Of a stretch of DNA of 64,000 bases, positions 2,787 to 64,000 are shown one piece after another. The translations under genes and the position numbers were made by a program. This stretch comes from a phage. Numbering within the stretch: the first letter of the stretch is position 1; every line of letters begins with the position of its first letter. The DNA lies in the sequence record OZ335959.1. One strand, given 5' to 3'. The notes beneath the pieces were generated by a model, which saw only the letters and a program-made list of their open reading frames with translations, did not search any database and was not told the DNA's origin.

Positions 2787-2807
2787 TTTATTCTCCTTTG
2801 TTTGTGT

Positions 2808-2850
2808 AAGATAATACTATCACAAAGGAACTATACTGTAAACAACTTTG
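2808..2850 (-). promoter_or_regulatory. early promoter module (-35 GTTTAC at 2838-2843, -10 region 2811-2820)
   Basis: Minus-strand GTTTAC plus TGTG-ATAGTAT -10 region; same architecture recurs upstream of many minus-strand genes. Confidence 0.45.
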
Positions 2851-2864
2851 TGCAATCTTTGGAA

Positions 2865-2891
2865 AATAAAAAAGGACTCCCGAAGGAGTCC
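2865..2891 (-). terminator. rho-independent terminator hairpin (GGACUCC-CGAA-GGAGUCC) with U-run
   Basis: Perfect 7-bp stem with tetraloop followed on minus strand by T-run; identical hairpin recurs at 55983-56009. Confidence 0.55.
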
Positions 2892-2896
2892 TCAAC

Positions 2897-3073
2897 TTAT
2901 GCTTTCTGCTTACCAAAACGAGAAGCATCATCTCGAAGAACCGCACGTGCTCGGCGCATGATCTTCTCAACAGTTTGATTGATACGAGAGTTCGACCCAC
3001 GCTTGTAGCCAGCGCGTTTAGAATCACCAACTTTCTTTTCAACTGCTTTCTTTGCTTTAGCTTGTTTTGCCAT
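2897..3073 (-). CDS. small basic protein (58 aa from internal ATG; track ORF extends to 3115)
   Basis: Lys/Arg-rich ORF MAKQAKAKK...; ATG at 3071-3073 preceded by AAGAG. Confidence 0.4.
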   Translation of the reverse strand: MAKQAKAKKAVEKKVGDSKRAGYKRGSNSRINQTVEKIMRRARAVLRDDASRFGKQKA

Positions 3074-3192
3074 TATAAATTCTCTTTTAAATGAAAATGC
3101 AGGACTTATTGGCATTGCCTGCGCAAGCCCTCAAGGGGAACATAGGTTTTGAATATTTACCGACAGGATAACCATAAACCTCGTCAACATAC

Positions 3193-3441
3193 TTACTTCA
3201 GTGTTACCACAAAGTGACGAACTGCTTTTCGTGCAGCAGAAGCCAGTGGCTTAGCATATTTAAGTTCATCTTTTTCCTGAAGCTCAGCAGCTAATGCAGT
3301 TTGAGCAGGATTCAGATGTTTGAAATAACGCAGGATTTCAAGAGCTTCGGCTTCAACATCAATAGATGCGCCATAGTTTTCGTGACCGTTATTCCATGCG
3401 TTTCGTTGCAGTTCAAGAGCGTGTTGTAATTGTTTAATCAT
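3193..3441 (-). CDS. rIII: rIII lysis inhibition accessory protein
   Basis: 82-aa ORF, size and position (just below gene 31) match T4 rIII. Confidence 0.7.
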   Translation of the reverse strand: MIKQLQHALELQRNAWNNGHENYGASIDVEAEALEILRYFKHLNPAQTALAAELQEKDELKYAKPLASAARKAVRHFVVTLK

Positions 3442-3588
3442 TTGAAAATTCTCGTTAGAGATTAAAACTCGGTAGTCACGTTCTTCTGAATTTCATCTTC
3501 TTTCGACAGATCTCTCAGTTGTAGACTACCACATAGAATTGTTCGGTTAACTTATTATTCCGACACCCAATTCATATTATTATTTATA

Positions 3589-3924
3589 TCACTTATAAAG
3601 ACACGGAATAGCTTTATAGTGACAGGTAACGAATTTTTGTTTAATTTCTTTTGGCTGCTTAAGGCCCAGAGCTACAAAAGGATGCGGAACGTTTCGAATT
3701 TGACCAACTGGAAGAGAAGTCAAATCACCAACTTCACAGAAACCTTCAGGAACATCAGGACCAACAGAGTGAACTACACACAGTTCAGGAACTTCACCTT
3801 GAACACGTTTACCGATAATAAGTCCTGATTCTGTAACTTCTTCATCACCAGCCTGTGCAGGTTCAGAAACTAAAATAACATATTCACCGACAGCACGAAT
3901 TGGTAGCTGTTGTACTTCAGACAT
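3589..3924 (-). CDS. 31: gp31 co-chaperonin (GroES analogue)
   Basis: 111-aa ORF, size and position between rIII and cd match T4 gp31 as I recall it. Confidence 0.85.
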
Positions 3925-4280: not shown

Positions 4281-4517
4281 TTATTTACCTATTACAGTTT
4301 TAATATGAGTTGTTCCACGTTCTTTAAGAGTGGAAAGCAATTTTTGGCATTTTTCTAAATCAGATTTCCAACTATACGGCCTATCAATACTAGTCCAATC
4401 AGTTTTATAATACTGTTTCCATTTAGAGAAAAAATATTTCTTATACTCTACAGCAAATGAAATGTTCTCGTTAGAATAAGAACTAATTGCTGTGAGCTGT
4501 ACCAAACGAAATTTCAT
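4281..4517 (-). CDS. hypothetical protein (78 aa; 31.2 position)
   Basis: ORF abutting cd stop. Confidence 0.5.
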   Translation of the reverse strand: MKFRLVQLTAISSYSNENISFAVEYKKYFFSKWKQYYKTDWTSIDRPYSWKSDLEKCQKLLSTLKERGTTHIKTVIGK

Positions 4518-5433: not shown

Positions 5434-5666
5434 AGTACGCCATACACCCTTTGTGCTTCAACTAATCCATCAAAATCCAATTTGAGATGTGTTATTTGAT
5501 CACCATCACCTGGATTCACAATTACTAATACTGAACGAGGAGTTTCGGTAATAACACGAACCGATGTTTCTGGAAATCGTTCAGAAACCTTATTTACCAA
5601 TTCCTGGGCAAATAGTTTAACTTTTTCTTGGAATTCTTTAACAGTAATTGGTTTTTCACTTAGCAT
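5430..5666 (-). CDS. hypothetical protein (78 aa)
   Basis: ORF in overlapping early gene array. Confidence 0.5.
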   Translation of the reverse strand: MLSEKPITVKEFQEKVKLFAQELVNKVSERFPETSVRVITETPRSVLVIVNPGDGDQITHLKLDFDGLVEAQRVYGVL

Positions 5667-6187
5667 GTTGATCCCAGCTCCTTACTTTCAACGTTTTTAA
5701 CTAATTTGACAGAAACTAATTCGGCATCTTGGGTAATCATTACCGGGCCTTCTTCATACTCTTCAAGATATTCTAGAGCTTTCTTTTTAGCTTCTTCCTT
5801 CGTATCAGTTTGAGCATAGATATAAAACATACAACCAGTAATACCTACTACTTTCCACTTAATTTCTTTATCAGTTTTAATTTCAAATTTACTGACAGAA
5901 TCATCTTTTTGAACTTCTTCGAAAAAAGAATATTCTAACATATAAGCAATTGAAAATAACGGGCTAACTTTATAGGATTCTCCCATTACATCAACAGCTT
6001 TATACCAACGGTCATCAATTTCGCGTTTAATGCTAATAACATTTTTCGCAGGATCTATTTTTACTTTAAATGAATTTTCCCCAATAAATTGAGCAATTCG
6101 TTTATTAGCCCCACAGGTTTCATTAAAAATATCTTTATATCCAGCTTTAAAACGATAAACCTTATCTTCTTCAAACCATTCGCTCAT
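5660..6187 (-). CDS. hypothetical protein (175 aa)
   Basis: ORF downstream of early-promoter module at 6212-6250. Confidence 0.5.
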   Translation of the reverse strand: MSEWFEEDKVYRFKAGYKDIFNETCGANKRIAQFIGENSFKVKIDPAKNVISIKREIDDRWYKAVDVMGESYKVSPLFSIAYMLEYSFFEEVQKDDSVSKFEIKTDKEIKWKVVGITGCMFYIYAQTDTKEEAKKKALEYLEEYEEGPVMITQDAELVSVKLVKNVESKELGSTC

Positions 6188-11189: not shown

Positions 11190-12359
11190 TTAAAAATATT
11201 TTTTAAAACTCATCATAACTTTATCATCAACATCATTATCAATCTGTGCTACAAGGTAAGATGACAGTTCTACTTCCTGTGGCGCGGATTGAACATTATC
11301 AGAATTAAGGTATTCACGAATCCAAGGATACGGATGTTTAACCGGAGCATCGGTAATTGGGCATGGAAGACCACACTGTTTCATACGAGATACAGTTAAG
11401 TAATCAATAAAGCTCCACATGCTATTTGTATTTAATCCAGGAACATCACCATCTTTAAATAAATGAACTGCCCAGTCTTTTTCTTGACGGTTAACTTCCA
11501 TGAAAATATCAACTGCTTCTTGTTCACACTCTTTGGCGATTTTAACCCATTCATCACCATCAGTGCCAAGTTGAAGTTGACGAATAATATATTGGGTGCC
11601 TTTAAGGTGAAGCTGCTCATCACGTGCAATGAACTTCATAATCTTGGCATTACCTTCCATGATTTCCATGTTCTTATGGAAGTTAAAGGTACATGCGAAA
11701 GATACATAAAAACGAATAGCTTCCAATGCGTTAATTACATGCAAGCAAAGATAAAGAGATTTCATTAGTGCTTGTTTAGTACATTCAACAACTTTGCCTA
11801 ACTCTTCTTTGCGAAATCCTTCTGATAAAATTCCTTCATAATCTTCAACCGCATTCTGATATTCACGAGTCTTAACTAGAACATCATCGTAATAGCGACC
11901 AATGGACTCGGCACGTTTCATAATAGCTTTATCTAATACAATCTCATCAAACACTTTTGACGGATCAGTATAAAGATTTCGCATAATATGAGTGTATGAA
12001 CGGCTGTGAATAGTTTCACTAAAAGTCCATGTAGCAACCCATGTATCAAGGCTTGGGTCTGAAATTAATGACATAAGTACAGCAGACGGTGCACGACCCT
12101 GAATGCTATCTAGAAGTGATTGATACTTCAGGTTATTAGTAAAAATATCTTGCTGATACTGAGGAAGCTTGTTAAATTGCGCAGCATCCATCATCAAGTT
12201 TACTTCTTCAGGACGCCAGAAAAATGATAATTGCTTTTCGGTTAAATCTTCAAAAACTTTATGGCGTTGAATATCATAACGCGCAATACCAAGACCTGAC
12301 CCGAAGAACATAGGTTCTTTTAAAACATCAACTGGATTTGTATTAAAAACTGTGCTCAT
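11190..12359 (-). CDS. nrdB: ribonucleotide reductase small subunit (uninterrupted)
   Basis: 389-aa continuous ORF, class Ia R2-like; no intron interruption. Confidence 0.92.
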   Translation of the reverse strand: MSTVFNTNPVDVLKEPMFFGSGLGIARYDIQRHKVFEDLTEKQLSFFWRPEEVNLMMDAAQFNKLPQYQQDIFTNNLKYQSLLDSIQGRAPSAVLMSLISDPSLDTWVATWTFSETIHSRSYTHIMRNLYTDPSKVFDEIVLDKAIMKRAESIGRYYDDVLVKTREYQNAVEDYEGILSEGFRKEELGKVVECTKQALMKSLYLCLHVINALEAIRFYVSFACTFNFHKNMEIMEGNAKIMKFIARDEQLHLKGTQYIIRQLQLGTDGDEWVKIAKECEQEAVDIFMEVNRQEKDWAVHLFKDGDVPGLNTNSMWSFIDYLTVSRMKQCGLPCPITDAPVKHPYPWIREYLNSDNVQSAPQEVELSSYLVAQIDNDVDDKVMMSFKKYF

Positions 12360-12410
12360 AAATTTTCCGCTTAGTTAATAGATAGTGACTCGTCCGTGAG
12401 TCAAATTATA

Positions 12411-14675
12411 TCATAATTTACAGGATGAACAATCTTCAGCTTTTGGAGTTTCTATTTCATAATCATCAGTACCAGAACCGTCACGGGTATTATGATAATA
12501 GAAATTTTTTCCGCCAAAATACCAAAAATACAAAAGGTCATCAATCATTATTGACATTGGAACCTTTCCTTTTGGAAAAATCTGTGGGTCATAATATGTA
12601 TTCGCTGAAGCTGATTGACACACCCATTTAAGCATAATAGCTACCTGCGTAAGATAAGGTTTATTACCTTTCTTAGCTAATTTCCACGTATAATCATATA
12701 GGTCTATGTTATGCTCAATATTGGGCACGACTTGATTAAAGGAACCCTCTTTTGATTCTTTAACAGAGACTGGTCCACGTGGAGGCTCGATACCGTTTGT
12801 ACTGTTAGAAACTTGGGAAGATGACTCACATGGCATAAGCGCTGATAATGTGCTATTACGGATGCCAAAGAGCTTAAGGTCTTCCCGCAGCGACGACCAG
12901 TCACAAACGTATTTTGGAGCTGCGATTTGGTCAATCTTTTTATTGTACCAGTCAATAGGTAATTCGCCTCGAGACCAACGAGTGTCTGAATAATATTCGC
13001 AAGGTCCTTTTTCTTTGGCGAGCTTAATGGATGCTTTAATGAGTCCATACTGTAATCTCTCGAATAGTTCATGTGTTAAATCGTTAGCATCTTCATAAGA
13101 AGCAAAATTACTTGCCAGCCAAGCTGCATAGTTAGTAACACCTACGCCAAGGTTTCGACGCTTTTTAGCTTTTTCTGCTTCAGGAACCGGATATCCTTGG
13201 TAGTCCAAAAGATTATCAAGAGCACGAACTTGGACTTCTGCCAATTCATTAATTTTATCTTGGTCTTGCCAATCAAAGTTATCTAACACAAATGCAGATA
13301 ACGTGCACAATCCAATTTCAGCATCAGGGCTATTCACATCATTTGTTGGAATAGCAATTTCACAACACAAGTTACTCTGACGAATAGGTGTCTTTTCACG
13401 AATAAATGGCGTATAGTTATTCGTATTATCAATGAACTGTACATAAATCCTTGCTGTTCCTGAGCGTTCAGTCATGAGCAATTCAAACAGTTCACGGGCT
13501 TTAATACGCTTTTTACGAATATTAGGGTCTTTTTCTGCAGCTTCGTATAATTCACGGAAACGGTCTTGGTCTTTAAAATAAGAATAGTAAAGTTCGCCGC
13601 CCATTTCATGCGGACTGAACAAAGTAATGTAATCATTCTTTCCAAATCGTTCCATCATCAAATCATTCAGCTGGACGCCATAATCCATATGACGGATACG
13701 GTTTTCTTCTACACCTTTGTTATTTTTCAAAACGAGAAGATTTTCAACTTCCAAATGCCAAATAGGATAATAAGCAGTAGCAGCGCCGCCACGAATTCCA
13801 CCCTGTGAGCATGATTTAACAGCAGTCTGAAAATGTTTCCAAAAAGGAATAACACCAGTATGGCGTACTTCGCCTGTGCCAATCTTAGAACCTTCGGCAC
13901 GAATCATACCAACGTTAATACCAATTCCAGCACGTTTGGAGATATATTCAACAATTGAAGCGGAAGCCTTATTGATAGACTTTAATGAATCACCTGCTTC
14001 AATAACAACGCATGAACTAAACTGTCGAGTCGGAGTACGGCAACCAGCCATAATAGGAGTTGGTAATGAAATCTGTCGAGTAGATACTGCTTCATAAAAA
14101 CGAATAACATGTTTTAATCTATCAACAGGTTCATCTTGATGTAATGCCATTCCAATAGTCATAAATGCAAACTGTGGAGTTTCATAAATTTGACCAGTGG
14201 TTTTATCTTTAACTAGATATTTTTCTTTTAATTGCATCGCCCCGGAATAAGTAAATTCCATATCCCGTTCGTGCTTAATTTTTGATTCTAAAAATGTAAT
14301 TTCTTCTGCTGAATATTTTGACAACAATTCAGGGTCGTATTTACCTTCATTTACACAGTAAGAAATATGGTCAATAAATGAACGTGGTTCATACTGCCCG
14401 TAAACATGCTTACGAAGAGCGAACATTAAGCAGCGTGCAGCTACATATTGATAATCAGGCTCTTCAACTGAAATAGAATTCGCAGCAGCCTTAATTACAA
14501 TGGTTTGAATGTCATCAGTTGTCATTCCATCACGGAGATATGATTTAATATTTTCATATAATTCATAAGGATCTACAGATGTTCCTTCAGCTGCCCAAGA
14601 TAAAACTTTAATAATTTTTTGCGGATCAAAGCTCTGAGAAACACCACTACTTTTGATAACATTAATTAATTGCAT
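12411..14675 (-). CDS. nrdA: ribonucleotide reductase large subunit
   Basis: 754-aa ORF with ATP-cone N-terminus and C-terminal CxxC tail; class Ia R1. Confidence 0.95.
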   Translation of the reverse strand: MQLINVIKSSGVSQSFDPQKIIKVLSWAAEGTSVDPYELYENIKSYLRDGMTTDDIQTIVIKAAANSISVEEPDYQYVAARCLMFALRKHVYGQYEPRSFIDHISYCVNEGKYDPELLSKYSAEEITFLESKIKHERDMEFTYSGAMQLKEKYLVKDKTTGQIYETPQFAFMTIGMALHQDEPVDRLKHVIRFYEAVSTRQISLPTPIMAGCRTPTRQFSSCVVIEAGDSLKSINKASASIVEYISKRAGIGINVGMIRAEGSKIGTGEVRHTGVIPFWKHFQTAVKSCSQGGIRGGAATAYYPIWHLEVENLLVLKNNKGVEENRIRHMDYGVQLNDLMMERFGKNDYITLFSPHEMGGELYYSYFKDQDRFRELYEAAEKDPNIRKKRIKARELFELLMTERSGTARIYVQFIDNTNNYTPFIREKTPIRQSNLCCEIAIPTNDVNSPDAEIGLCTLSAFVLDNFDWQDQDKINELAEVQVRALDNLLDYQGYPVPEAEKAKKRRNLGVGVTNYAAWLASNFASYEDANDLTHELFERLQYGLIKASIKLAKEKGPCEYYSDTRWSRGELPIDWYNKKIDQIAAPKYVCDWSSLREDLKLFGIRNSTLSALMPCESSSQVSNSTNGIEPPRGPVSVKESKEGSFNQVVPNIEHNIDLYDYTWKLAKKGNKPYLTQVAIMLKWVCQSASANTYYDPQIFPKGKVPMSIMIDDLLYFWYFGGKNFYYHNTRDGSGTDDYEIETPKAEDCSSCKL

Positions 14676-15232: not shown

Positions 15233-16092
15233 TTATACCGCCATCTTTCCTTTAATTGGCGGGTGAGATTCGTAACCTTTAAGAACGAAATCTTTAGGTC
15301 TAAGTTTAAGAACATATTTTAATTGTTCTTTAGTAGAAAGATATCGAAATTTATAAGGTAGACCACTTATTACCAGCTCACAAAGCTCTTTAGGTTCACG
15401 ACGCAAAATTTCTTTACATTGTTCTACGTGATTCATATAGATATGAGTATTACCACCAGAAAATATCAAATCTCCCGGAATAAGATTACACATCTTAGCT
15501 ACAATATGAACTAATGCAGCATATGATGCAATATTAAATGGAAGACCGAGGAAAACATCTACCGAACGTTGATACCACTGCAAATCCAAATAGCCATTAC
15601 GCACATTAAACTGATAGAACATATGACAAGGTGGTAATGCCATATATTTAAGTTCAGCTGGATTCCATGCAGAAACAATTTGACGCCTATCATTTGGTAG
15701 TTTTTTAATACGATCAACAACTTCTATAATTTGGTCTACACCACCAAAATCGCGCCATTGTTTTCCATAAATTGGACCAAGTTCACCACTATGGTATCCT
15801 AAATCTTTTGCTTGATTTTCGTAATTTTCATCCCAGACTGTTTTGCCTTGAATTAATGAATCATGTTGAATTAATCGCAAATCATTGACATTTGTGCTTC
15901 CCGATAAAAACCATATTAGTTCAGCAATGCAAGCTTTCCAGGCGAGCTTCTTAGTCGTTACTGCAGGAAAACCTTTAGTTAAATCCCAGCGTAATTTAGT
16001 ACCGAACAAAGCAATTGTTCCTGTGCCTGTTCGGTCATCGGTTTCGTAGCCATTTTCTAGGATATCTTTAATTAAAAATTGGTATTGTTTCA

Positions 16093-16093
<1 letters not shown>
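15233..16093 (-). CDS. td: thymidylate synthase (uninterrupted, no intron)
   Basis: 286 aa from MKQYQ; continuous ORF across the site where T4 td carries its intron; conserved TS motifs incl. PPCH. Confidence 0.93.
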
Positions 16094-17125
<1,032 letters not shown>

Positions 17126-19470: not shown

Positions 19471-19545
19471 TTTTATTTCCTTTTTAATTTAATTAACAGT
19501 TGGTGCTATGACGATGTATGACCTCATAGCTGGTCAGTGAGATAA
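19471..19545 (-). promoter_or_regulatory. gene 32 translational operator (5' leader with H-type pseudoknot UGACC/GGUCA and GCUAUG/CAUAGC, then A/U-rich tract)
   Basis: Minus-strand leader reads ...UGACCAGCUAUGAGGUCAUACAUCGUCAUAGCACC...AAUUAAAUUAAAAAGGAAAUAAAAAUG, matching the gp32 autoregulatory site as I recall it. Confidence 0.7.
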
Positions 19546-19553
19546 TTATAATC

Positions 19554-19561
19554 TATTTATA
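19554..19561 (-). promoter_or_regulatory. late promoter TATAAATA upstream of gene 32
   Basis: Exact TATAAATA on minus strand. Confidence 0.55.
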
Positions 19562-19569
19562 ATAAGCAA

Positions 19570-27556: not shown

Positions 27557-31679
<4,123 letters not shown>

Positions 31680-35221: not shown

Positions 35222-35371
35222 TTACTGCATGACTGTGATAACTGTCATGATAACACGTTGAATTCCGAATGCAAGAAGACCTCCTGCTACGGCTGGAACA
35301 ACACCTAAACCCGCTAGTAAAATGCTACCAGATACTAATGCCGCGCTTGTAATACCAATGAATGGACTCAT
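35222..35371 (-). CDS. small hydrophobic membrane protein (49 aa)
   Basis: ORF below track cut-off; ATG overlaps gene 52 stop; Gly/Ala-rich TM sequence. Confidence 0.4.
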   Translation of the reverse strand: MSPFIGITSAALVSGSILLAGLGVVPAVAGGLLAFGIQRVIMTVITVMQ

Positions 35372-36696
35372 TTGATTTCCTCTAAATCTTTAGTGTATTC
35401 GGTAACTACATCAGTAGTTTTCCAATATTCGTTTTCTTCTTTCTTAGCTTTAGCTTCTTCAGCAAGTTTCTTTGCTTCGTCGGAAGTCATATGAAAAATA
35501 TTCATTCCAACTAGTTTATCAACATAAGAAGAATACATATCAATTTTAGAAAGTTCTTCGGTCAGTTCTTTGCGAGTTTTACCTTGTACAACAATTTCAC
35601 CTGAAATCACTTTCTTAATGAAATGCGCCTTGGCAAAGGCTAAACGAAATGCTGATTCAGTTTCTTTGATTTTGTTATCAATTCGTTTTTGGACATAAGT
35701 TTTACGAACTTCAACGAAGTCTTTGATTAAATCAACTACGTTATCGTAAACTTGTAGCTTTCCTTTCTCATTAATAACGGTAATATTCTGGGAACGACGC
35801 TCAATCAACCCGAAGTCTTTCATAATTTTTGCATGGCGTTCTTCTTCGTTATCACTCAAAGAGTATTCTTTGCGGAATTTAACTTTGAAGCCAAAGCCAT
35901 GCTCACCACAAGCATCATCCCACGTAATGAAGCCTTTATCTTCAAGCGGGTCTAAGATTTTACTCACATAAGTTTCACGATCATACTTATACGGAATCTC
36001 AGTGATATGCATTTGAGTTCGTGAAGTAAACTTGTACGTTCCACGAATTTCATATTGACCGTCAATTTCAACGACTTCACCACGAAATTCTGGGAATTCT
36101 ACCTTAGGTTTAGTTACTTTCTTTCCTTGAAGAGCTTGCAATACAGCTTTCTTGACAGAAGAAACACTATGAGGAAGAATGTAAGTTGCATAACCAGTTG
36201 CAATACCGGAAACACCATTAAGAAGAACAGTAGGAATAATAGGCAAATAGAAAGCAGGCGGAATGTGTTCTTTATCTTGATGTACCGGAGCATATTCAGT
36301 ATCTTTATATACATTATAGAAATTTTTACTTACACGAGCAAAAATATAACGACTTGCCGCTGCTTTTTGAACGGTACGAGAACCAAAGTTTCCTTGACCA
36401 TCTAACAAAGGAAAGTTATTATTCCAAGTGTTAGCCATCAAAGCACCTGCGTCTTGCGCAGAGTTTTCACCATGATGATATCCAAGGTCTGCTACACCGC
36501 CTGCAATAGAAGCGAGTTTGTGAAACTTATCTTTATTTCCTCGTGCCAAATCAAGAGCTCGAGCAATAACAAATCGTTGAACTGGCTTAAATCCATCAAT
36601 CATATTTGGGATAGCACGATTTTCAACCGTGTACATAGCATAAGCCAATGCTTCATTATCAATGATACTTTTTAAATCGCGATTATTCAGTTGCAT
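35368..36696 (-). CDS. 52: DNA topoisomerase II medium subunit gp52
   Basis: 442-aa ORF, GyrA-like breakage-reunion domain (same length as T4 gp52). Confidence 0.92.
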   Translation of the reverse strand: MQLNNRDLKSIIDNEALAYAMYTVENRAIPNMIDGFKPVQRFVIARALDLARGNKDKFHKLASIAGGVADLGYHHGENSAQDAGALMANTWNNNFPLLDGQGNFGSRTVQKAAASRYIFARVSKNFYNVYKDTEYAPVHQDKEHIPPAFYLPIIPTVLLNGVSGIATGYATYILPHSVSSVKKAVLQALQGKKVTKPKVEFPEFRGEVVEIDGQYEIRGTYKFTSRTQMHITEIPYKYDRETYVSKILDPLEDKGFITWDDACGEHGFGFKVKFRKEYSLSDNEEERHAKIMKDFGLIERRSQNITVINEKGKLQVYDNVVDLIKDFVEVRKTYVQKRIDNKIKETESAFRLAFAKAHFIKKVISGEIVVQGKTRKELTEELSKIDMYSSYVDKLVGMNIFHMTSDEAKKLAEEAKAKKEENEYWKTTDVVTEYTKDLEEIK

Positions 36697-41021: not shown

Positions 41022-43199
41022 TTAGGCCGCAAGGGCCTTCATAGTTTTAGCGATTTGGGAAACTTCATCATCACTTAAAGAGTTACGATAACCGATGAAG
41101 TCGGAAACGATACGGAATTTCTTGGTAAACTCAGCAACCATTTTATCACTATTTTTTGAAGCATTATTTGATAGTACATCAAAAAGATTAGTTACTGTCC
41201 AGATGTCATGACCGATGGTACCTTTTCCACCGTTGAAATATATACCCTGCAATGAACTAACCATATTACCAAGGCGAGTATATTCTTCAGAAACTTCATC
41301 TACACTGAAGTACTTCATCATAAAATCGAGTTCAGGATACTTAATAATTTTATCAATATATCGTTTAGCTGAACTTGAATAACCTACATACTTATCATAA
41401 TCTACAGCATCAAAAGCATCTACATATAAATCACGCAGAGTTTCAAAAATACATTGGCACTGACCAAGTTCTTTTACCTTTTTCTGCAAAAGCGGACGAA
41501 TAACATAAAATTCATTAATGCCAATAAGATTAGCCATACGAGTCAAAATACTCGTAGATGGATTACAAAGCGATGTAGTGCCATCCATAGAGAAAATATC
41601 AGAACGATGCATGTATGCTACGTAACCAGTAATTTCATCTGCTTCTGATGTGAGCGTAAACAGTTCCTCTTTTTCCCAGCGCCCGTCTTTAATTTCAAAC
41701 TTAAATGCAGTAGCAGCTTTAGGACGAGGAGCTTTACTTTTAACTGCCTTCGGAATATAACTTTTAACTAAAGCTTCAATTTCTGACAAATAATGAATGT
41801 TAACTTCATCACTTTCAAACATTGCCATAATATCAGGAAGTAAATCAATCTGCGATTCTACTTCCGGATTAATAAACAGAAGACGCTCATTATGATGAAT
41901 ATTTAAGGCGTTATTAAATTCACTATCATCTAATGCATGTGCTAATCCACGGACAATATTAACACGATTTTTAATATTATCAATAACGATATTGATTTTT
42001 GTTGTATTAATACCAAACAGACGATAACTTGATGCAACGGCTGAAGTTTCATGACTTTGCTTAATGCGTTTCAGTCGAGGGTCAAGATTTACTTCATACA
42101 CAACTCCTGCATTGCATAGTTTACTATCAGGTTCAAACATGCTTTGCATCTTCTTATATGACAGATTTTTAGTCGTAAATTTGACTGAATTACTAATCAT
42201 ATAATCTCGAGCAGAATATCCCATCTTCATCAATTCACGGTATGTATGACGAGGAGATGTAGATTCTTTAAATCGTTTTACATCTTCATTGAATGCCTTC
42301 TCACTAAGCTCTTTAACACGCTCAATAATATTTTTACGAGTACGATCATCTAATGAAAGAGCTTCGCGTGATGGAGCAATATCAAGTGAACCCATTGGAA
42401 ACTTAATGTAATTCACTTCATTGCGGATGCTTAACCAGTTACGGTCTCTAATAACACCATCGATAGGATAAACAATACCACCATAGATAGCATATAATCC
42501 ACCACGATCTGGCCAGTATCTTTCTGGATTTACGCCGTAATAATCATCAAAATCCGGAAAATAATCAATTTCGCGGTCAAGACCATTAATGATAGCTAAA
42601 TCTTTGAATGGTCGCATGATATAAGAAACTTCATAAGCAAAGTTTCTAAAGTCTTTTTCTTCAACTGGAACTACAATTTCAATACCAGTTTTATCATCTG
42701 GATCCATTTCTTTTACGAATGTAGGTTTAATTTGCGGACCATCGCCATCCATGTAAGCTACATAACCACGAATTTCACCTTTATGATACGAAGTAATACT
42801 AAATGTATCAGTATAACTAAACGGAGATTTAGAACCTAAACCAAATCCACCAATGAAATCGTTAGATTCAGCCTTAGATGAACTAAAGTATGAATTATAC
42901 AACCCAGGAGAATTATCATCACCCTGAATATCAAAATCGCTCATACCCGGACCAAAATCTCGACAAACAAATCGCGGATCTAATCGTCCTGGAACTTGAA
43001 TGATAAATTTTTCAGGATTTCCATTGAGAGCATGGGCATCAATCATGTTGGTAATCAATTCACGGACTACTGCGCGAATCTTGTTTGTATACAAATCAGA
43101 TGACAGAATTTTAAATACTTTAGGAGATGCTGTGATGCTAAATGCTTTTGACTTAGAACCATTACCAAGAATTGTTTCTTTTTCAGTGGTGATAATCAT
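41022..43199 (-). CDS. rIIA: rIIA
   Basis: 725-aa ORF (same length as T4 rIIA) with GHKL-type ATPase-like N-terminal region. Confidence 0.92.
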
Positions 43200-43209
43200 A
43201 ATTTCCTCA

Positions 43210-43413
43210 TTAATTCATATTGCGTTTAATAACTTCAGCAACTTCTAGTAGTTCATCTTTAGTTGCGGTGTCGGATTGAATTTTATCTCTAATATCCTTA
43301 AAGCGGTTTTTAAACTCTTCGGCTTCTCCCATATCGAAAAAGCGTTGAATGATTCTATATTCTCGATGAACTGCTTTATCAAAAAGTTCTAAATTTACTT
43401 TATATGATTTCAT
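43210..43413 (-). CDS. hypothetical protein (67 aa; rIIA.1 position)
   Basis: ORF between gene 39 and rIIA. Confidence 0.55.
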
Positions 43414-43434
43414 TTCAATATCCTCATTTGCCCA

Positions 43435-43470
43435 ATTAATTATACCACATCCTTGTGGTAAAGTAAACTA
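43435..43470 (-). promoter_or_regulatory. early promoter module (-35 GTTTAC 43463-43468)
   Basis: Conserved module overlapping 3' end of gene 39. Confidence 0.45.
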
Positions 43471-45288
43471 TTGGCTCATCCATTCTTTACGAAGGTCAGC
43501 ATTATCTCCCATGAGCATTTCAAAAAGCTCTTTCCAGTTCTCAGGAAGTTTAACAACATCATATACTGGGTTTTGAATCATCTCACGATATTCAGATTTT
43601 TCCAAAGAGCCAAGTCCCTTAATATAACGGATGCTATGTTTAGGTAGAGCATCTTTGGCACTCTCATATTCAGCGACTGTATAAAACCATTCTTGTTTTT
43701 TACCGACCTGAGCGATGATTACAGGAGTTTTGACGAAGCGAATTCTTCCTTGTTCAAACAGTTCTGGCCAATTGCTAAAAAATCCGAGCAGAGAAGGATA
43801 AATGCTTCCTAGACCATCATGGTCAGCATCGGTCATAATAGCAATATTATGATAATTCAAGTTTTCAGCTTTTTCACCAAGAACTAATCCAGTGATTGCG
43901 CAAATATCAAACAGTTCTTTGTTTTTAAGCATATCGGCATAAGACATACCCCAGCTATTAAGAACTTTACCACGCAATGGATAACCACCATGAAGTTCTT
44001 TATCACGAACATCAATAAGATATCCGATAGCAGAATCACCCTCAGTCAAGAAAAGAGTAGTGTCAGCGTCTTTACCGCAAAGATTCGCTTTAATATGTTT
44101 ATGAACCTTAGCTTTAGAAGCCTTTTTAGCTGCTTTAGTTTCAGCTGCTTTTTCTGCAGCCAATTTACGAGCCAAAGCAGCTTCAATAATTGGCATTAAA
44201 ATTGCTTCATTATTTAAAATAGCACGTGAAATCTTTTTAGCATCAAGCTGAATATGACTACGAATTTCACCAAATGGAGAAGTCAAACGCTCTTTAGTCT
44301 GAGAATCAAATCGCATGTTTTTCATATCACGAACAAACATAACGATAGTCAAACATTCTTTAACACGTGCTTTAGTTACATCAATTTTGAACTTGCGTTT
44401 GATTTGTGGAATAAGGTCTTCACAAATATCATCCATAACGCAGTCAATGTGATGGCCACCATTCTTAGTATGAATGTTATTAACGTATGTTAATTGACGA
44501 AAACCATCAGGTGAACGACCAACCGCAATAGAACAATTTTCTTGTTCTTGAACAATAGCATGCTCATCATATTGGCGTGCATATTTCTTAAAATTACCCT
44601 GAACCTTTTTACCATTAAAGGTAAATTGAATATCAGGATAAACTACTGCAAGTGTCTGGAGACGATCCAGTGTAATGTCAAGATAAACTTGAGACAGCTC
44701 ATTAGTTTCAAATGACATAAAATCAGGAATGAAAGTAACACGAGTTCCTTTCCATTTTCCGGGAATATCTTCCCATGATTTATTTTCCATGCCATTTGAA
44801 CAACGAACTACAATATTATTTTGACCGTCGCCAGTTTCACCGACAAACATCACAGAAAAAATGTTAGTTAAACTAGAACCAACACCGTTCATACCGCCAG
44901 TGACGCGTTCTTTATCATCGCCGAAGTTACCACCTGCTTTTGGAATAGTCCAAGCAGCAACAGGACCAGGAATTTCTTCACCAGTAGGTGTTTTAACCAT
45001 CGCTTGTGGAATACCGCGACCGTTATCTTCAACTGTTACCTGATTATTTTTAATGGTAACATTAATTTTATTTGCGAATTTAAACTTAGTACGAATACCT
45101 TCATCTACTGAGTTATCGATAATTTCATCAATAAGCTTAACAAGACCAGGTACATACTGAACACTTTCCCATTTACCAAACAGAAAGCGCTCATGCATTT
45201 CATTAGCGGAAGAGCCAATGTACATGCCGCTACGCTTTTTGATATGTTCAATATCGCTCAGAATTTTAATTTCATTCTTAATCATCAC
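43468..45288 (-). CDS. 39: DNA topoisomerase II large (ATPase) subunit, single unsplit polypeptide (T4 gp39 + gp60 equivalent)
   Basis: 606-aa continuous ORF with GyrB-like ATPase and TOPRIM regions; no internal stop or bypass gap. Confidence 0.92.
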   Translation of the reverse strand: MMIKNEIKILSDIEHIKKRSGMYIGSSANEMHERFLFGKWESVQYVPGLVKLIDEIIDNSVDEGIRTKFKFANKINVTIKNNQVTVEDNGRGIPQAMVKTPTGEEIPGPVAAWTIPKAGGNFGDDKERVTGGMNGVGSSLTNIFSVMFVGETGDGQNNIVVRCSNGMENKSWEDIPGKWKGTRVTFIPDFMSFETNELSQVYLDITLDRLQTLAVVYPDIQFTFNGKKVQGNFKKYARQYDEHAIVQEQENCSIAVGRSPDGFRQLTYVNNIHTKNGGHHIDCVMDDICEDLIPQIKRKFKIDVTKARVKECLTIVMFVRDMKNMRFDSQTKERLTSPFGEIRSHIQLDAKKISRAILNNEAILMPIIEAALARKLAAEKAAETKAAKKASKAKVHKHIKANLCGKDADTTLFLTEGDSAIGYLIDVRDKELHGGYPLRGKVLNSWGMSYADMLKNKELFDICAITGLVLGEKAENLNYHNIAIMTDADHDGLGSIYPSLLGFFSNWPELFEQGRIRFVKTPVIIAQVGKKQEWFYTVAEYESAKDALPKHSIRYIKGLGSLEKSEYREMIQNPVYDVVKLPENWKELFEMLMGDNADLRKEWMSQ

Positions 45289-45354
45289 TTATCCTCGTTT
45301 GGTTTCGGGAATATTATACTCCGGTAATCATAAAGCTAAAGGCCCGAAGGCCTT

Positions 45355-45627
45355 TTATTTAAAACGGATAGTCGAATCCTTGAAGAATAGACCAGAACAT
45401 ACGGTTCCTTCTACTTTCTGCCCGGTAGGTCCAATAGCACGAAATCCAGTATGTTGGAAATCATTTTCAGAGCAACCGAACCAGTTATATCCAGTGATTT
45501 CAATATTAGTAAAACCACTTGAAGACAAAACTTTGGTTGCATTATCAGCATCAGTACATCCTGCTAAAGACACTGCTAATACTAATGCTGCGATAGAACG
45601 ATTAATATATTTCATAATTTCACTCAA
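45355..45627 (-). CDS. lipoprotein (90 aa)
   Basis: Signal peptide with lipobox LAGC. Confidence 0.55.
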   Translation of the reverse strand: MSEIMKYINRSIAALVLAVSLAGCTDADNATKVLSSSGFTNIEITGYNWFGCSENDFQHTGFRAIGPTGQKVEGTVCSGLFFKDSTIRFK

Positions 45628-45991
45628 ATTTAATGGCTTGAAGAAGACTAATAATTCTCAAGCGACTTCTTTCATCTTTAACCGTAAATGAAAGAGGGTC
45701 ACCAGATTTCATAGTGATAGTGCATTCAAAATCAAAATCTTCGGGAACTTCTTCGAAGAAGTCAAATTCTTCATCATATATTAGAACATTACTCTGAAAA
45801 CTGTGAAGAATTTTTCCATCATTTCCAGATGCTGTACTAATCATTGTAACGTTATTACCTTTCATATCTTCAACGATAAATTCGCTTGTAGATATTACGG
45901 CATTAATAGAACCATTCCTATAAATAGCAGAAAATAGATATTTCTTTTCTTCACCTTCACGAACACGATATTTCTTACCGATTTTAAACAT
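45620..45991 (-). CDS. hypothetical protein (123 aa from ATG; track used GTG at 45997)
   Basis: ORF. Confidence 0.5.
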   Translation of the reverse strand: MFKIGKKYRVREGEEKKYLFSAIYRNGSINAVISTSEFIVEDMKGNNVTMISTASGNDGKILHSFQSNVLIYDEEFDFFEEVPEDFDFECTITMKSGDPLSFTVKDERSRLRIISLLQAIKFE

Positions 45992-45993
45992 AA

Positions 45994-46170
45994 TCACCCT
46001 TTAAGTAAGTCGTAAAATCCACCATTCACATGCTTAGGAGCAGAAGGCCGACGAGTAGACAGACGATGACATTTAGGACAAACATCATTTTCTCGTTCAG
46101 AAATCTTTTTAATTTTTTCATATTCATGCCCGCAATCTTCGGATTGGCATTTATAATCATACATTGGCAT
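45994..46170 (-). CDS. FmdB-like zinc-ribbon protein (58 aa)
   Basis: Hand-translated MPMYDYKCQSEDCGHEYEKIKKISERENDVCPKCHRLSTRRPSAPKHVNGGFYDLLKG; two CxxC pairs; below track cut-off. Confidence 0.45.
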   Translation of the reverse strand: MPMYDYKCQSEDCGHEYEKIKKISERENDVCPKCHRLSTRRPSAPKHVNGGFYDLLKG

Positions 46171-46172
46171 AA

Positions 46173-46592
46173 TTATTCCTTAAAGTGTGCTTTCAACATC
46201 TGATACAAGGACCATGCCTGTTCATTATTTTCAATAGTAACTTTCATGATAGGAAATTCTGTGAAATCTTCTATTTGTTCTTGCTCTTCCTGCTCTTGCT
46301 CTTCAGATGCCTGATATGGATTTTCAACTTCATCAAAGAACCCAGCTTCGTTAGTAGAGAGCCAGATAAAGTTTTCGTCAAGGATATCACCATGTGTTGC
46401 ATATCCAACTGTGCCAGTAGATGTCACAATTTTAGTAGGACGACCAAGATGGTCAACATCTAAAATTTTAAAAGGATGCATACCTAAACGACGTGCATAG
46501 ATTCCGTTATCAGTATGGTCTTTAATAAAATTTTCTTGAGCTTGTTTATTTTTAAATTGATACCATTTATTAACTTCAAATTTAATAGCCAT
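46173..46592 (-). CDS. hypothetical protein (139 aa; position of T4 goF)
   Basis: ORF with acidic EQEQEEQEQ tract. Confidence 0.5.
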
Positions 46593-56298: not shown

Positions 56299-56332
56299 AT
56301 AAATTCTCACAGCTTTTAAGCCGTCGTTTATA

Positions 56333-56851
56333 TTAATAACCTCGGTCTTGACGAGCGAAGTTTTCAGCATTTTTCAGATAATAAAGTTTAAAGATTTCTT
56401 CAGCCGTAAGACCGAGACCTTGGAACATGTTCAGAACGAAATGAAGAATATCAATCATTTCGAATTTAATTTCCAACTGGTCTTGTGGAGATAAGTCAGT
56501 AATCAGAGTTTCACGACGTTCACCGTGTTGCGACTTCCAAGGCTTCCATACAGCAGATGCATCTTTTTCGCCATTGCTCATACCACCAAGAGAAGTCAGA
56601 AGTTCGCGGAATTCATCATCAATATAATCTTTCTGATTACGCAGCCAATCAACAACTTCACCTGCAGTAGCCAAATCATCAGGATGACGGTTATATTCAG
56701 GTTTATCTTTAGCTAAACGAACTTGCAGAGATTTCTGCATATCAAGCATAACCTGCAGCGGGTCTTTTTCATCACCGAGAATATCCCAGTATTCATTTTG
56801 AGCTTTATCAGCGCCTTCAATTAGTTGACTACATTCGTTAAAGTATGCCAT
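56333..56851 (-). CDS. 56: dCTP pyrophosphatase (dCTPase/dUTPase) gp56
   Basis: 172 aa from MAYFNE (track ORF runs 93 nt further upstream); AAGGA RBS; MazG-like. Confidence 0.85.
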   Translation of the reverse strand: MAYFNECSQLIEGADKAQNEYWDILGDEKDPLQVMLDMQKSLQVRLAKDKPEYNRHPDDLATAGEVVDWLRNQKDYIDDEFRELLTSLGGMSNGEKDASAVWKPWKSQHGERRETLITDLSPQDQLEIKFEMIDILHFVLNMFQGLGLTAEEIFKLYYLKNAENFARQDRGY

Positions 56852-56922
56852 TATTTTTCCTTTCAATTCATGGGTTAGTAGATTAATTATACAATAAATA
56901 TATAAAGCAATAAGGAGGACAT

Positions 56923-61594: not shown

Positions 61595-62750
61595 TTAACT
61601 GATCTAGGTCAGTTTCTAAATCAGCTGCTGATTTACTTTTACTTTCTGGAGATTTAAATTTTTCAACCTTTGAGTTAATCAATTCATCAACTTCAGCTTC
61701 AACAATTTCATTACTATCAATAGCACCTAACTGATAAGCGCGTTTAATAGCATCTCGGAATGGCTGATGCTTAAATAAAGGACCCCAGAATGTAGTGCAA
61801 TTGGTATCTTTTGCACGCCAAGATTTTTCTTCGCGAATCATCTCGCCGGTTTCTTCGTCAAGAAATTCACGAGCATACCAGCCATTTTTAGGTTTTACCA
61901 CAAATCCTAATTCAAGAGCCATATCTAACAATCCAGAATAAGGATCGATGCCACCGTCAAATTTAACATCAATAAAGAATTTACTTTTTTCTTTAACGGT
62001 ACGAGATTTTTCTACATTTAGAACAAATTGATACCCCTGAAGATCAGAACCATCTTTAATCTGGCGCTTACCGATAATGAATACAGTATCAGCCGAATAC
62101 ATTACGCCTGTACCACCTGTCATCACGGTTTTACTAAACATTTCAATTGTTTCAATTGTATGGTTAACCGCAACACACGGAATGTTTTTAATACTAAAAT
62201 AAGGAGTAACAATACGAAATAATGACTTCAGCGATTTAGCACGAGTCATATCTGCCACAGATTTTTCATTCAAGGCATCTTCCGTTTCTTTCTTAGAAGC
62301 CATATTACCGATTGAGTCGATGAATACAATAACTTTTTCACCACGCTCAATAGCTTCAAGCTGATTCACCATATCAATTTTCAGTTGTTCAACTGACTGG
62401 ATTGGGGTATGAATTACTCGTTCCGGGTCAACTCCCATGGATCGCAAATAAGCGGGAGTAATACCAAATTCGCTATCATAGAATAGACATACCGCGTCAG
62501 GATATTTGTTCAAATACGCCGCAACCATAGTCAAAGACATATTTGATTTAAAGTGTTTAGAAGGACCTGCAAAAATGGTTAAACCAGACTGCATACCACC
62601 GTCAATCGCACCTGAAATAGCGATATTAAGCATTGGGATTTTTGTACGGATTACATCCTTTTCATTAAAGAATTTAGATGTAGTCAGTTCAGCAGTCATT
62701 TTAGAAGTGGAAGCTTTAATCAAACGGGATTTTAAATCTGCAATAGACAT
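61569..62750 (-). CDS. uvsX: UvsX recombinase (RecA-like)
   Basis: 393-aa ORF with Walker A GPSKHFKS and RecA-fold motifs. Confidence 0.92.
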   Translation of the reverse strand: MSIADLKSRLIKASTSKMTAELTTSKFFNEKDVIRTKIPMLNIAISGAIDGGMQSGLTIFAGPSKHFKSNMSLTMVAAYLNKYPDAVCLFYDSEFGITPAYLRSMGVDPERVIHTPIQSVEQLKIDMVNQLEAIERGEKVIVFIDSIGNMASKKETEDALNEKSVADMTRAKSLKSLFRIVTPYFSIKNIPCVAVNHTIETIEMFSKTVMTGGTGVMYSADTVFIIGKRQIKDGSDLQGYQFVLNVEKSRTVKEKSKFFIDVKFDGGIDPYSGLLDMALELGFVVKPKNGWYAREFLDEETGEMIREEKSWRAKDTNCTTFWGPLFKHQPFRDAIKRAYQLGAIDSNEIVEAEVDELINSKVEKFKSPESKSKSAADLETDLDQLSDMEEFNE

Positions 62751-62827
62751 TCATTTTTTCCATAGGCATCATTATATTTTCCTCACTGGTTAAAGATAGA
62801 GTAATTATAACACAATAAATTTAGGCA

Positions 62828-63676
62828 TTAATCAACTGCTATTGGATGAATAGCATTAAACTTATGAAACGCTTCTGATTTTTCTTTGCGCGAAACACAC
62901 ATGCGAAGAACCTTTAATGGCTCGTCTTCTTCACCCAACGATTTTCTCTTTTCAATATTTGATGTTTTCCAACGAGCTTGCTCTGGAAACTCTCTATTGA
63001 TTTGCTCAAGAGCTCTATTATGTTTTGAATTACTACGAATTGAACTACATCCGCCAGGAGCTTGCGCTTTTCCAGATACAACCAGATATTTGAACAAGGC
63101 CAAATGCGGATAACCTTGATTAATTAAATTGAGAAATGCATACATATCTTCGCATAAATCAATTTTTCCATACCCAATTTGTTCTGTTGTAAGTTTTCCA
63201 AGGTCATACCAAGTATTCGTGAATCCATATGAATTTTCACGATAATTACCCCAAGATGAAGTAATTTTAAAAATTGGTAAACGAGCATGACCATGATAAT
63301 ACCCGCAATCCATGGCATCTTCAACGTATTGAATCAATTCATAGAACTGTTCACGGGTTAATTGATTAATTTTATCTACGCAGCGACGATCATCTTTCTT
63401 TCGCATTGAACTCATACGAATAGTAGTATCATCATCAATCATCCAAATTCGTTGACCTGCATACATTTCAGTAATTGCTTTGCGAGTGCCAGCAATTCCA
63501 TTAACATCATCGGGAATAGTTATAATTTTGGCTCTAGACCCGTAAGCGTCATAATAAGCTTTTTCTTCGTGTTCACGTACTACAATATGAGGTTCATAAT
63601 CAGTCGGAAACATATCAAGGGCAGAAACTGCCCCTACGCGTTGATAGCTTGGAATTACGAATTGAATCATTTCCAC
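62828..63676 (-). CDS. DxD-motif glycosyltransferase (GT-A-like); probable DNA hydroxymethylcytosine glucosyltransferase at the beta-gt locus
   Basis: 282-aa ORF with IWMIDDD motif; sits between uvsX and 42 where T4 encodes the 351-aa beta-gt. Confidence 0.55.
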   Translation of the reverse strand: MEMIQFVIPSYQRVGAVSALDMFPTDYEPHIVVREHEEKAYYDAYGSRAKIITIPDDVNGIAGTRKAITEMYAGQRIWMIDDDTTIRMSSMRKKDDRRCVDKINQLTREQFYELIQYVEDAMDCGYYHGHARLPIFKITSSWGNYRENSYGFTNTWYDLGKLTTEQIGYGKIDLCEDMYAFLNLINQGYPHLALFKYLVVSGKAQAPGGCSSIRSNSKHNRALEQINREFPEQARWKTSNIEKRKSLGEEDEPLKVLRMCVSRKEKSEAFHKFNAIHPIAVD

Positions 63677-64000
63677 TCACCATTATAATCTTTTTTCGCA
63701 ATATGAGTTTCGCCAGTTTTCCACCAATGGTCAACCAAATAAAAATGACGGGAATACACATGAAGGCTTCCGACATTCCATATAATGGAACCTGCTTTAT
63801 ACTGACGAGTTGAATCACCTGCATTCAAATCAGATACTAATTTATCTAGTACGTATTTTTGCCATGCATAATCATTACGGAATCCGAAGACTACGTCATT
63901 TGAACGCATGCTTACTACTGCATTGACTTTCTTATCACGAATCAGGTACTGTACTGTATTCGTACACATGAAATCTGACATACCGTCTTTATTGTAGTCA
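63667..64000 (-). CDS. 42: dCMP hydroxymethylase gp42, C-terminal part (gene continues beyond window end)
   Basis: Translation ...DFMCTNTVQYLIRDKK...HVYSRHFYLVDHWWKTGETH matches the C-terminal half of T4 gp42; no true start in window. Confidence 0.85.
   Translation of the reverse strand, partial: DYNKDGMSDFMCTNTVQYLIRDKKVNAVVSMRSNDVVFGFRNDYAWQKYVLDKLVSDLNAGDSTRQYKAGSIIWNVGSLHVYSRHFYLVDHWWKTGETHIAKKDYNGEWK

Follow-up and report, generated by a model that had tools for sequence, protein, structure and literature searches.

An unsplit gene 39 for the large topoisomerase II subunit in a T4-like phage lacking the MobA element

In phage T4 and a minority of its relatives, a MobA homing-endonuclease element divides the gene for the large subunit of the type II topoisomerase into two, 39 and 60, and introduces a 50-nt bypass. 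When another phage carries one long reading frame at this locus, the question is whether this represents the original gene, a formerly split gene that became whole again, or a relic that only looks intact. We examined this question for gene 39 of the phage record OZ335959.1, using a stretch of 64,000 nucleotides that we refer to as the window. As a whole, the window comes from a Tequatrovirus that shares about 97-98% identity with, among others, ECp13, ESh26 and pSs-1.

The gene 39 reading frame and its start codon

On the minus strand of the window, positions 43468..45288 form one unbroken open reading frame, which comprises 606 codons if counted from a GTG. This codon (45286..45288) was taken as the start by a mechanical ORF call and by the initial annotation; it is probably untranslated. 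It is immediately preceded by a TAA stop, and the codon that follows it is an ATG (45285..45283). A GAGGA motif read from the sequence (45292..45296, minus strand), also present in T4, lies 6 nt upstream of this ATG and is the putative Shine-Dalgarno sequence of gene 39. In addition, the 46 nt upstream of the gene are identical between the window and T4, for which the annotated start is an ATG. Since the TAA, the spacing of the GAGGA and the T4 annotation all favor the ATG, we rejected GTG 45288 as the true start and assign gene 39, named ‘60plus39’ in some annotations, to 43468..45285 on the minus strand, an assignment based on the ORF, its Pfam domains and ungapped alignments. Its product is the large (GyrB-like) subunit of the phage type IIA topoisomerase, with 605 aa, a length shared by gp39 of T2, T6 and ime09. 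The initial annotation was thus correct in proposing a single frame that runs uninterrupted from the ATPase through the TOPRIM region, and its length of 606 aa needs to be shortened to 605; annotation as one 605-aa CDS from ATG 45285 is advised. A promoter and terminator scan of positions 43000..46200 returned 11 sites, compared to 12.7 ± 3.2 in shuffled sequence, and thus no excess.

The protein aligns without gaps to its counterparts in phages that carry the gene in one piece. It differs from T2 gp39 at 1 of 605 residues (F70L; 76 nt differences, 95.8% nucleotide identity), from T6 gp39 at 2 of 605 (70 nt differences, 96.2% nucleotide identity) and from the ime09 ‘gp60plus39’ product at a single residue (46 nt differences). 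Relative to T2 and T6, the alignments show no internal stop, frameshift or gap in gene 39, so the unsplit arrangement described in the initial annotation stands. The differences from the T2 and T6 genes are point changes only, synonymous ones and a few non-synonymous ones, and rIIA.1 and 39.1 flank the gene in the window as they do in both phages. Likewise, the ‘60plus39’ genes of RB32, ime09 and several hundred other Tequatrovirus genomes have an identical architecture and show no substantive difference from the window. A hidden interruption by a frameshift, an intein or an intron was considered and ruled out by the equal length and the ungapped alignments to T2, T6 and ime09.

One could suppose that the long frame merely looks intact and is in fact a relic without function or an artefact of assembly, although no observation speaks for this. 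The frame contains no stops or gaps, every catalytic motif described below is present, and the same junction occurs in 452 independent records. Moreover, the contrast between 76 nucleotide differences and one amino acid change relative to T2 points to strong purifying selection and not to a pseudogene. These observations effectively refute the relic or artefact explanation, to which we assign next to no probability.

Domains, motifs and the predicted enzyme

The Pfam domains of the window gp39 occur in the expected order and all score above their cut-offs (positions in the 606-aa numbering): HATPase_c, the GHKL ATPase, at aa 48-150 (38.3 bits, cut-off 26.4), DNA_gyraseB, the transducer, at aa 251-385 (51.1 bits, cut-off 27), and TOPRIM_C at aa 520-605 (30.6 bits, cut-off 29). 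The Pfam Toprim model itself reaches 17.5 bits, under its cut-off of 23.1. We accept the TOPRIM region despite this low score because the catalytic glutamate and DxDxD motifs, the TOPRIM_C match and full-length structural relatives support it.

The motifs that characterize each domain can be located individually. The ATP-binding motifs of the GHKL domain, including the N-box and the glycine-rich ATP lid, lie at 44872..45126 (minus strand), assigned from motif positions and the HATPase_c match, and read EIIDNSVDE (aa 54-62), DNGRGIP (aa 87-93) and GGMNGVGSS (aa 130-138). The QTK loop of the transducer, SQTKERL (aa 328-334; 44284..44304, minus strand), falls inside the DNA_gyraseB match. In the TOPRIM region, the catalytic glutamate motif LTEGDSA (aa 413-419 in the 605-aa numbering; 44029..44049, minus strand) has its T4 counterpart in gp39, and the counterpart of the metal-binding motif DADHDG (aa 486-491 in the 605-aa numbering; 43813..43830, minus strand) is found in T4 gp60, just ahead of the bypass take-off codon. 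In the window gp39, the catalytic glutamate and the DxD metal site sit on one polypeptide, encoded by a single ORF.

A discrepancy with the T4 reference adjoins the QTK loop. The gp39 of the T4 reference NC_000866 reads KNMRLIRQTKERL at about 4321..4365 (about 44279..44323 in the window), where the window and HY01 both have KNMRFDSQTKERL; T2, T6 and ime09 agree with the window here. In nucleotides, CGATTGATTCGTCAA of T4 stands against CGATTTGATTCTCA(A/G), equivalent to one base lost and one gained within 8 nt. The old T4 reference seems to contain two errors that compensate for each other at this place, and the difference does not look like real biology.

The GyrA-like partner subunit is encoded by gene 52 (35368..36696, minus strand; 442 aa; Pfam DNA_topoisoIV, E = 9e-77), and its product is 99.8% identical to T4 gp52. 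With a GHKL ATPase, a transducer QTK loop, a TOPRIM region and an A-type partner, gp39 has the attributes of a B-type (GyrB/ParE-like) subunit of a type IIA topoisomerase. Its domain order of GHKL, transducer and TOPRIM and its catalytic motifs are the same as in bacterial GyrB and ParE and in the N-terminal half of eukaryotic topoisomerase II, and its sequence matches those of human TOP2A/B, yeast Top2 and ParE over the full length (E = 1e-47 to 1e-59). In contrast, it falls far under the NCBIfam equivalog cut-offs for bacterial gyrB and parE (233 versus 740 bits, and similar), and we therefore regard it as part of a distinct phage branch.

Solved structures exist for close relatives. The window gp39 matches PDB 8ylu_C, the T6 gp39 chain, over its full length (PMC11461880), and matches 8yo3_C, the artificially fused T4 gp39-gp60 chain, in two stretches. 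Purified T6 gp39 with gp52 relaxes DNA, as does the purified artificial fusion of T4 gp39 and gp60, and both were resolved by cryo-EM; the phage enzyme is without a GyrA-box and without a C-terminal beta-pinwheel, and it relaxes DNA (PMC11461880). By analogy, two copies of gp39 and two copies of gp52 would assemble into an A2B2 type IIA enzyme, an ATP-dependent machine that would cut one duplex, pass another through the break and reseal it. Given its near-identity to the T6 protein (2 aa), the window gp39 is predicted to carry out ATP-dependent strand passage.

The site occupied by the MobA element in T4

The window protein is colinear with residues 1-473 of T4 gp39, continues with three residues (ENL) and is then colinear with residues 32-160 of gp60. 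The two T4 products thus align in order along the single frame, as the initial annotation implied. Nothing in the window protein corresponds to two portions of the T4 products, the 43-aa C-terminal tail of gp39 (residues 474-516) and the N-terminal head of gp60 (residues 1-31). The DNA alignment falls into three blocks. Upstream of the site, window positions 45397-43868 correspond to T4 5440-3911 with 96.1% identity; downstream of it, 43803-43400 correspond to T4 2793-2390 with 98.5% identity. Between them, a block of 46 nt (window 43859-43814, T4 2899-2854) shows merely 76.1%. The homology to T4 accordingly breaks at window positions 43868 and 43803, and roughly 1.1 kb of T4 sequence occupies the place of 64 nt in the window (43804..43867, minus strand; nt 1419-1482 of the gene). 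Whereas T4 has at this locus a C-terminal tail on gp39, mobA/60.1, an N-terminal tail on gp60, a diverged copy and the 50-nt gap, the window is without all of these.

The position of the bypass itself is similarly uninterrupted. The window reads GAT GGT CTA GGA AGC in frame where T4 has GAT GGA TAG…(50 nt)…TTA GGT. The window has neither the GGA-UAG take-off nor the 50-nt coding gap of the bypass with its matching GGA landing codon. We also considered whether a mobA/bypass cassette might reside elsewhere in the window, and rejected this possibility on two grounds. The intact MobA of HY01, an HNH endonuclease, found no homologue in a tblastn search of the 64-kb window (best E = 0.59), and the T4 insertion (2803..3910) retrieved by blastn against the window only the 46-nt homologous stretch at 76%. 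With no 50-nt gap, no tails and no MobA match, the statement in the initial annotation that gene 60, the bypass and mobA are all missing is borne out.

These features can be compared with a published description of the element. The unsplit arrangement has been named the ‘parental’ Topo2L, and the MobA element is characterized as mobile and roughly 1100 nt long (Manning & Atkins, bioRxiv 10.1101/2022.08.31.505936). In HY01, the element removes 64 nt of the ‘parental’ Topo2L and brings in mobA together with a C-terminal and an N-terminal tail, a homologous copy that has diverged to 67-81% DNA identity, and the 50-nt bypass; the insertion site is given as nt 1399-1419, together with a ‘64 nt deleted region’ (bioRxiv 10.1101/2022.08.31.505936). 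The break points, the figure of 64 nt and the 76% identity found in the window agree with this description. The 64-nt stretch of the window is of the parental type, with no element-derived tails, and has one mismatch to T2 (a synonymous change, ACC for ACT) and three to T6.

Taken with the domain and alignment data, these observations argue strongly that the window, from a Tequatrovirus and thus a T4-like phage of E. coli or Shigella, carries an intact, functional, ancestral and never-split gene 39 that was not invaded by the MobA element. We consider this reading almost certain, and none of our results contradicts it. Alternatively, MobA could once have split the gene, which would later have become whole again through recombination or gene conversion in a cell co-infected by an uninvaded relative. 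T-even phages recombine freely, and the unequal identity to T4 on the two sides of the site, lower upstream than downstream, is compatible with a mosaic ancestry. In addition, some lineages show progressive loss of the element, and a ‘hit and run’ clade is described (Manning & Atkins, bioRxiv 10.1101/2022.08.31.505936). However, lineages that lost the endonuclease retain the split and the tails (bioRxiv 10.1101/2022.08.31.505936), whereas the window holds no remnant of the tails, the diverged copy or the gap, and its 64-nt site is of the parental type, a single nucleotide away from T2. A restored gene is for these reasons highly improbable; since a regained form would be indistinguishable from the ancestral state, this scenario would alter the history of the gene and not its identity.

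The favored reading, a gene that was never invaded, has a consequence for the mobility of the element. The preprint describes MobA as nicking the T2 gene and homing into T2, and the bypass as shielding an invaded gene against further MobA nicking (bioRxiv 10.1101/2022.08.31.505936). A gene uninvaded by the element would therefore retain the site at which MobA nicks the T2 gene. From the one-base difference between the 64-nt stretch and the T2 target, for which cleavage was shown by experiment, we infer that gene 39 of the window may constitute an empty MobA homing site and a potential recipient in a mixed infection.

Genome context and occurrence among Tequatrovirus

Comparison of the window with T4 shows that further T4 elements are absent: the nrdB intron with I-TevIII, mobE (together with nrdB.1), the td intron with I-TevI, segG, segF and segA, for which the comparison sites in the window are 11190..12359, 12360..12414, 15233..16105, 19534..19568, 56299..56369 and 62739..63684. 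The T4 MobE, I-TevI, SegG, SegF and SegA proteins found no match in the window by tblastn, and single ORFs of 389 and 290 aa there represent nrdB and td, respectively. In the place of dam, which in T4 is located between genes 56 and 61, the window has 20 nt only (56892..56911), and T4 Dam likewise had no tblastn match in it. The unsplit gene 39 is thus one facet of a phage that broadly resembles T2 and is poor in homing-endonuclease genes.

One could propose that the absence from these 64 kb of all seven tested T4 homing-endonuclease elements, and of dam at its T4 position, reflects an obstacle to homing at the level of the lineage, or systematic purging of such elements, and not mere non-exposure, an idea that we rate as very unlikely. 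In a narrower variant, the synonymous ACC-for-ACT change in the MobA target could alter the susceptibility of the site to MobA.

Several other regions of the window also depart from T4. T4 segA and b-gt are replaced by a 282-aa ORF (62828..63676, minus strand) with a Pfam TAGT match (TET-associated glycosyltransferase, E = 7e-10), and the T4 b-gt (beta-glucosyltransferase) has no match within the window. This ORF may, we presume, be a T2/T6-type second glucosyltransferase. The distal tail-fiber region (27557..31679, plus strand) cannot be aligned with T4 and has a raised GC content of 0.41-0.43. It encodes a gp37 of 1103 aa with a C-terminal Peptidase_S74 chaperone domain, and the 263-aa ORF that follows (30888..31679) matches Pfam GP38 (E = 8e-72) and represents a gp38 adhesin as in T2, not a gp38 assembly factor of the T4 type.

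Two small minus-strand ORFs occur at positions where T4 has none, and neither has a Pfam match. One of 125 aa (45620..45997), located between 39.1 and 39.2, is labeled RB69ORF005c/RB32ORF005c-like in relatives; the other, of 175 aa (5660..6187), lies where 519 nt are inserted between cd.2 and cd.3. Two segments stand out by their divergence from T4: gene 56 (56370..56891) with 75.9% and the 5' part of nrdB (11695..12359) with 83.9% nucleotide identity, compared to the ~94-96% typical for the rest of the window. These segments adjoin the sites of the T4 homing endonucleases segF and mobE, respectively.

The unsplit form of gene 39 is widespread. We used a 161-nt probe across both T4 interruption sites and scored a record as uninterrupted when at least 80% of the probe was covered in one piece. 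Among 495 matching phage records, 452 carry the uninterrupted junction and the remaining 43 the T4 cassette. The split form of T4 is therefore the exception, and the unsplit form the rule in Tequatrovirus. The comparison of the arrangement with T2 and T6 in the initial annotation is supported by gapless alignments with 1 and 2 amino acid differences; it is no peculiarity of these two phages, given the large majority of records that share it.

An unsplit gene 39, as in T2/T6-type phages, is real, ordinary and already well known. The present case carries little weight as a discovery, as the literature covers the unsplit gene, the T6 structures and the relation to the MobA/bypass element of T4. 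For the phage itself, our analysis supports classification as a MobA-free Tequatrovirus with T2-type traits, and suggests it as a natural recipient for tests of MobA homing.
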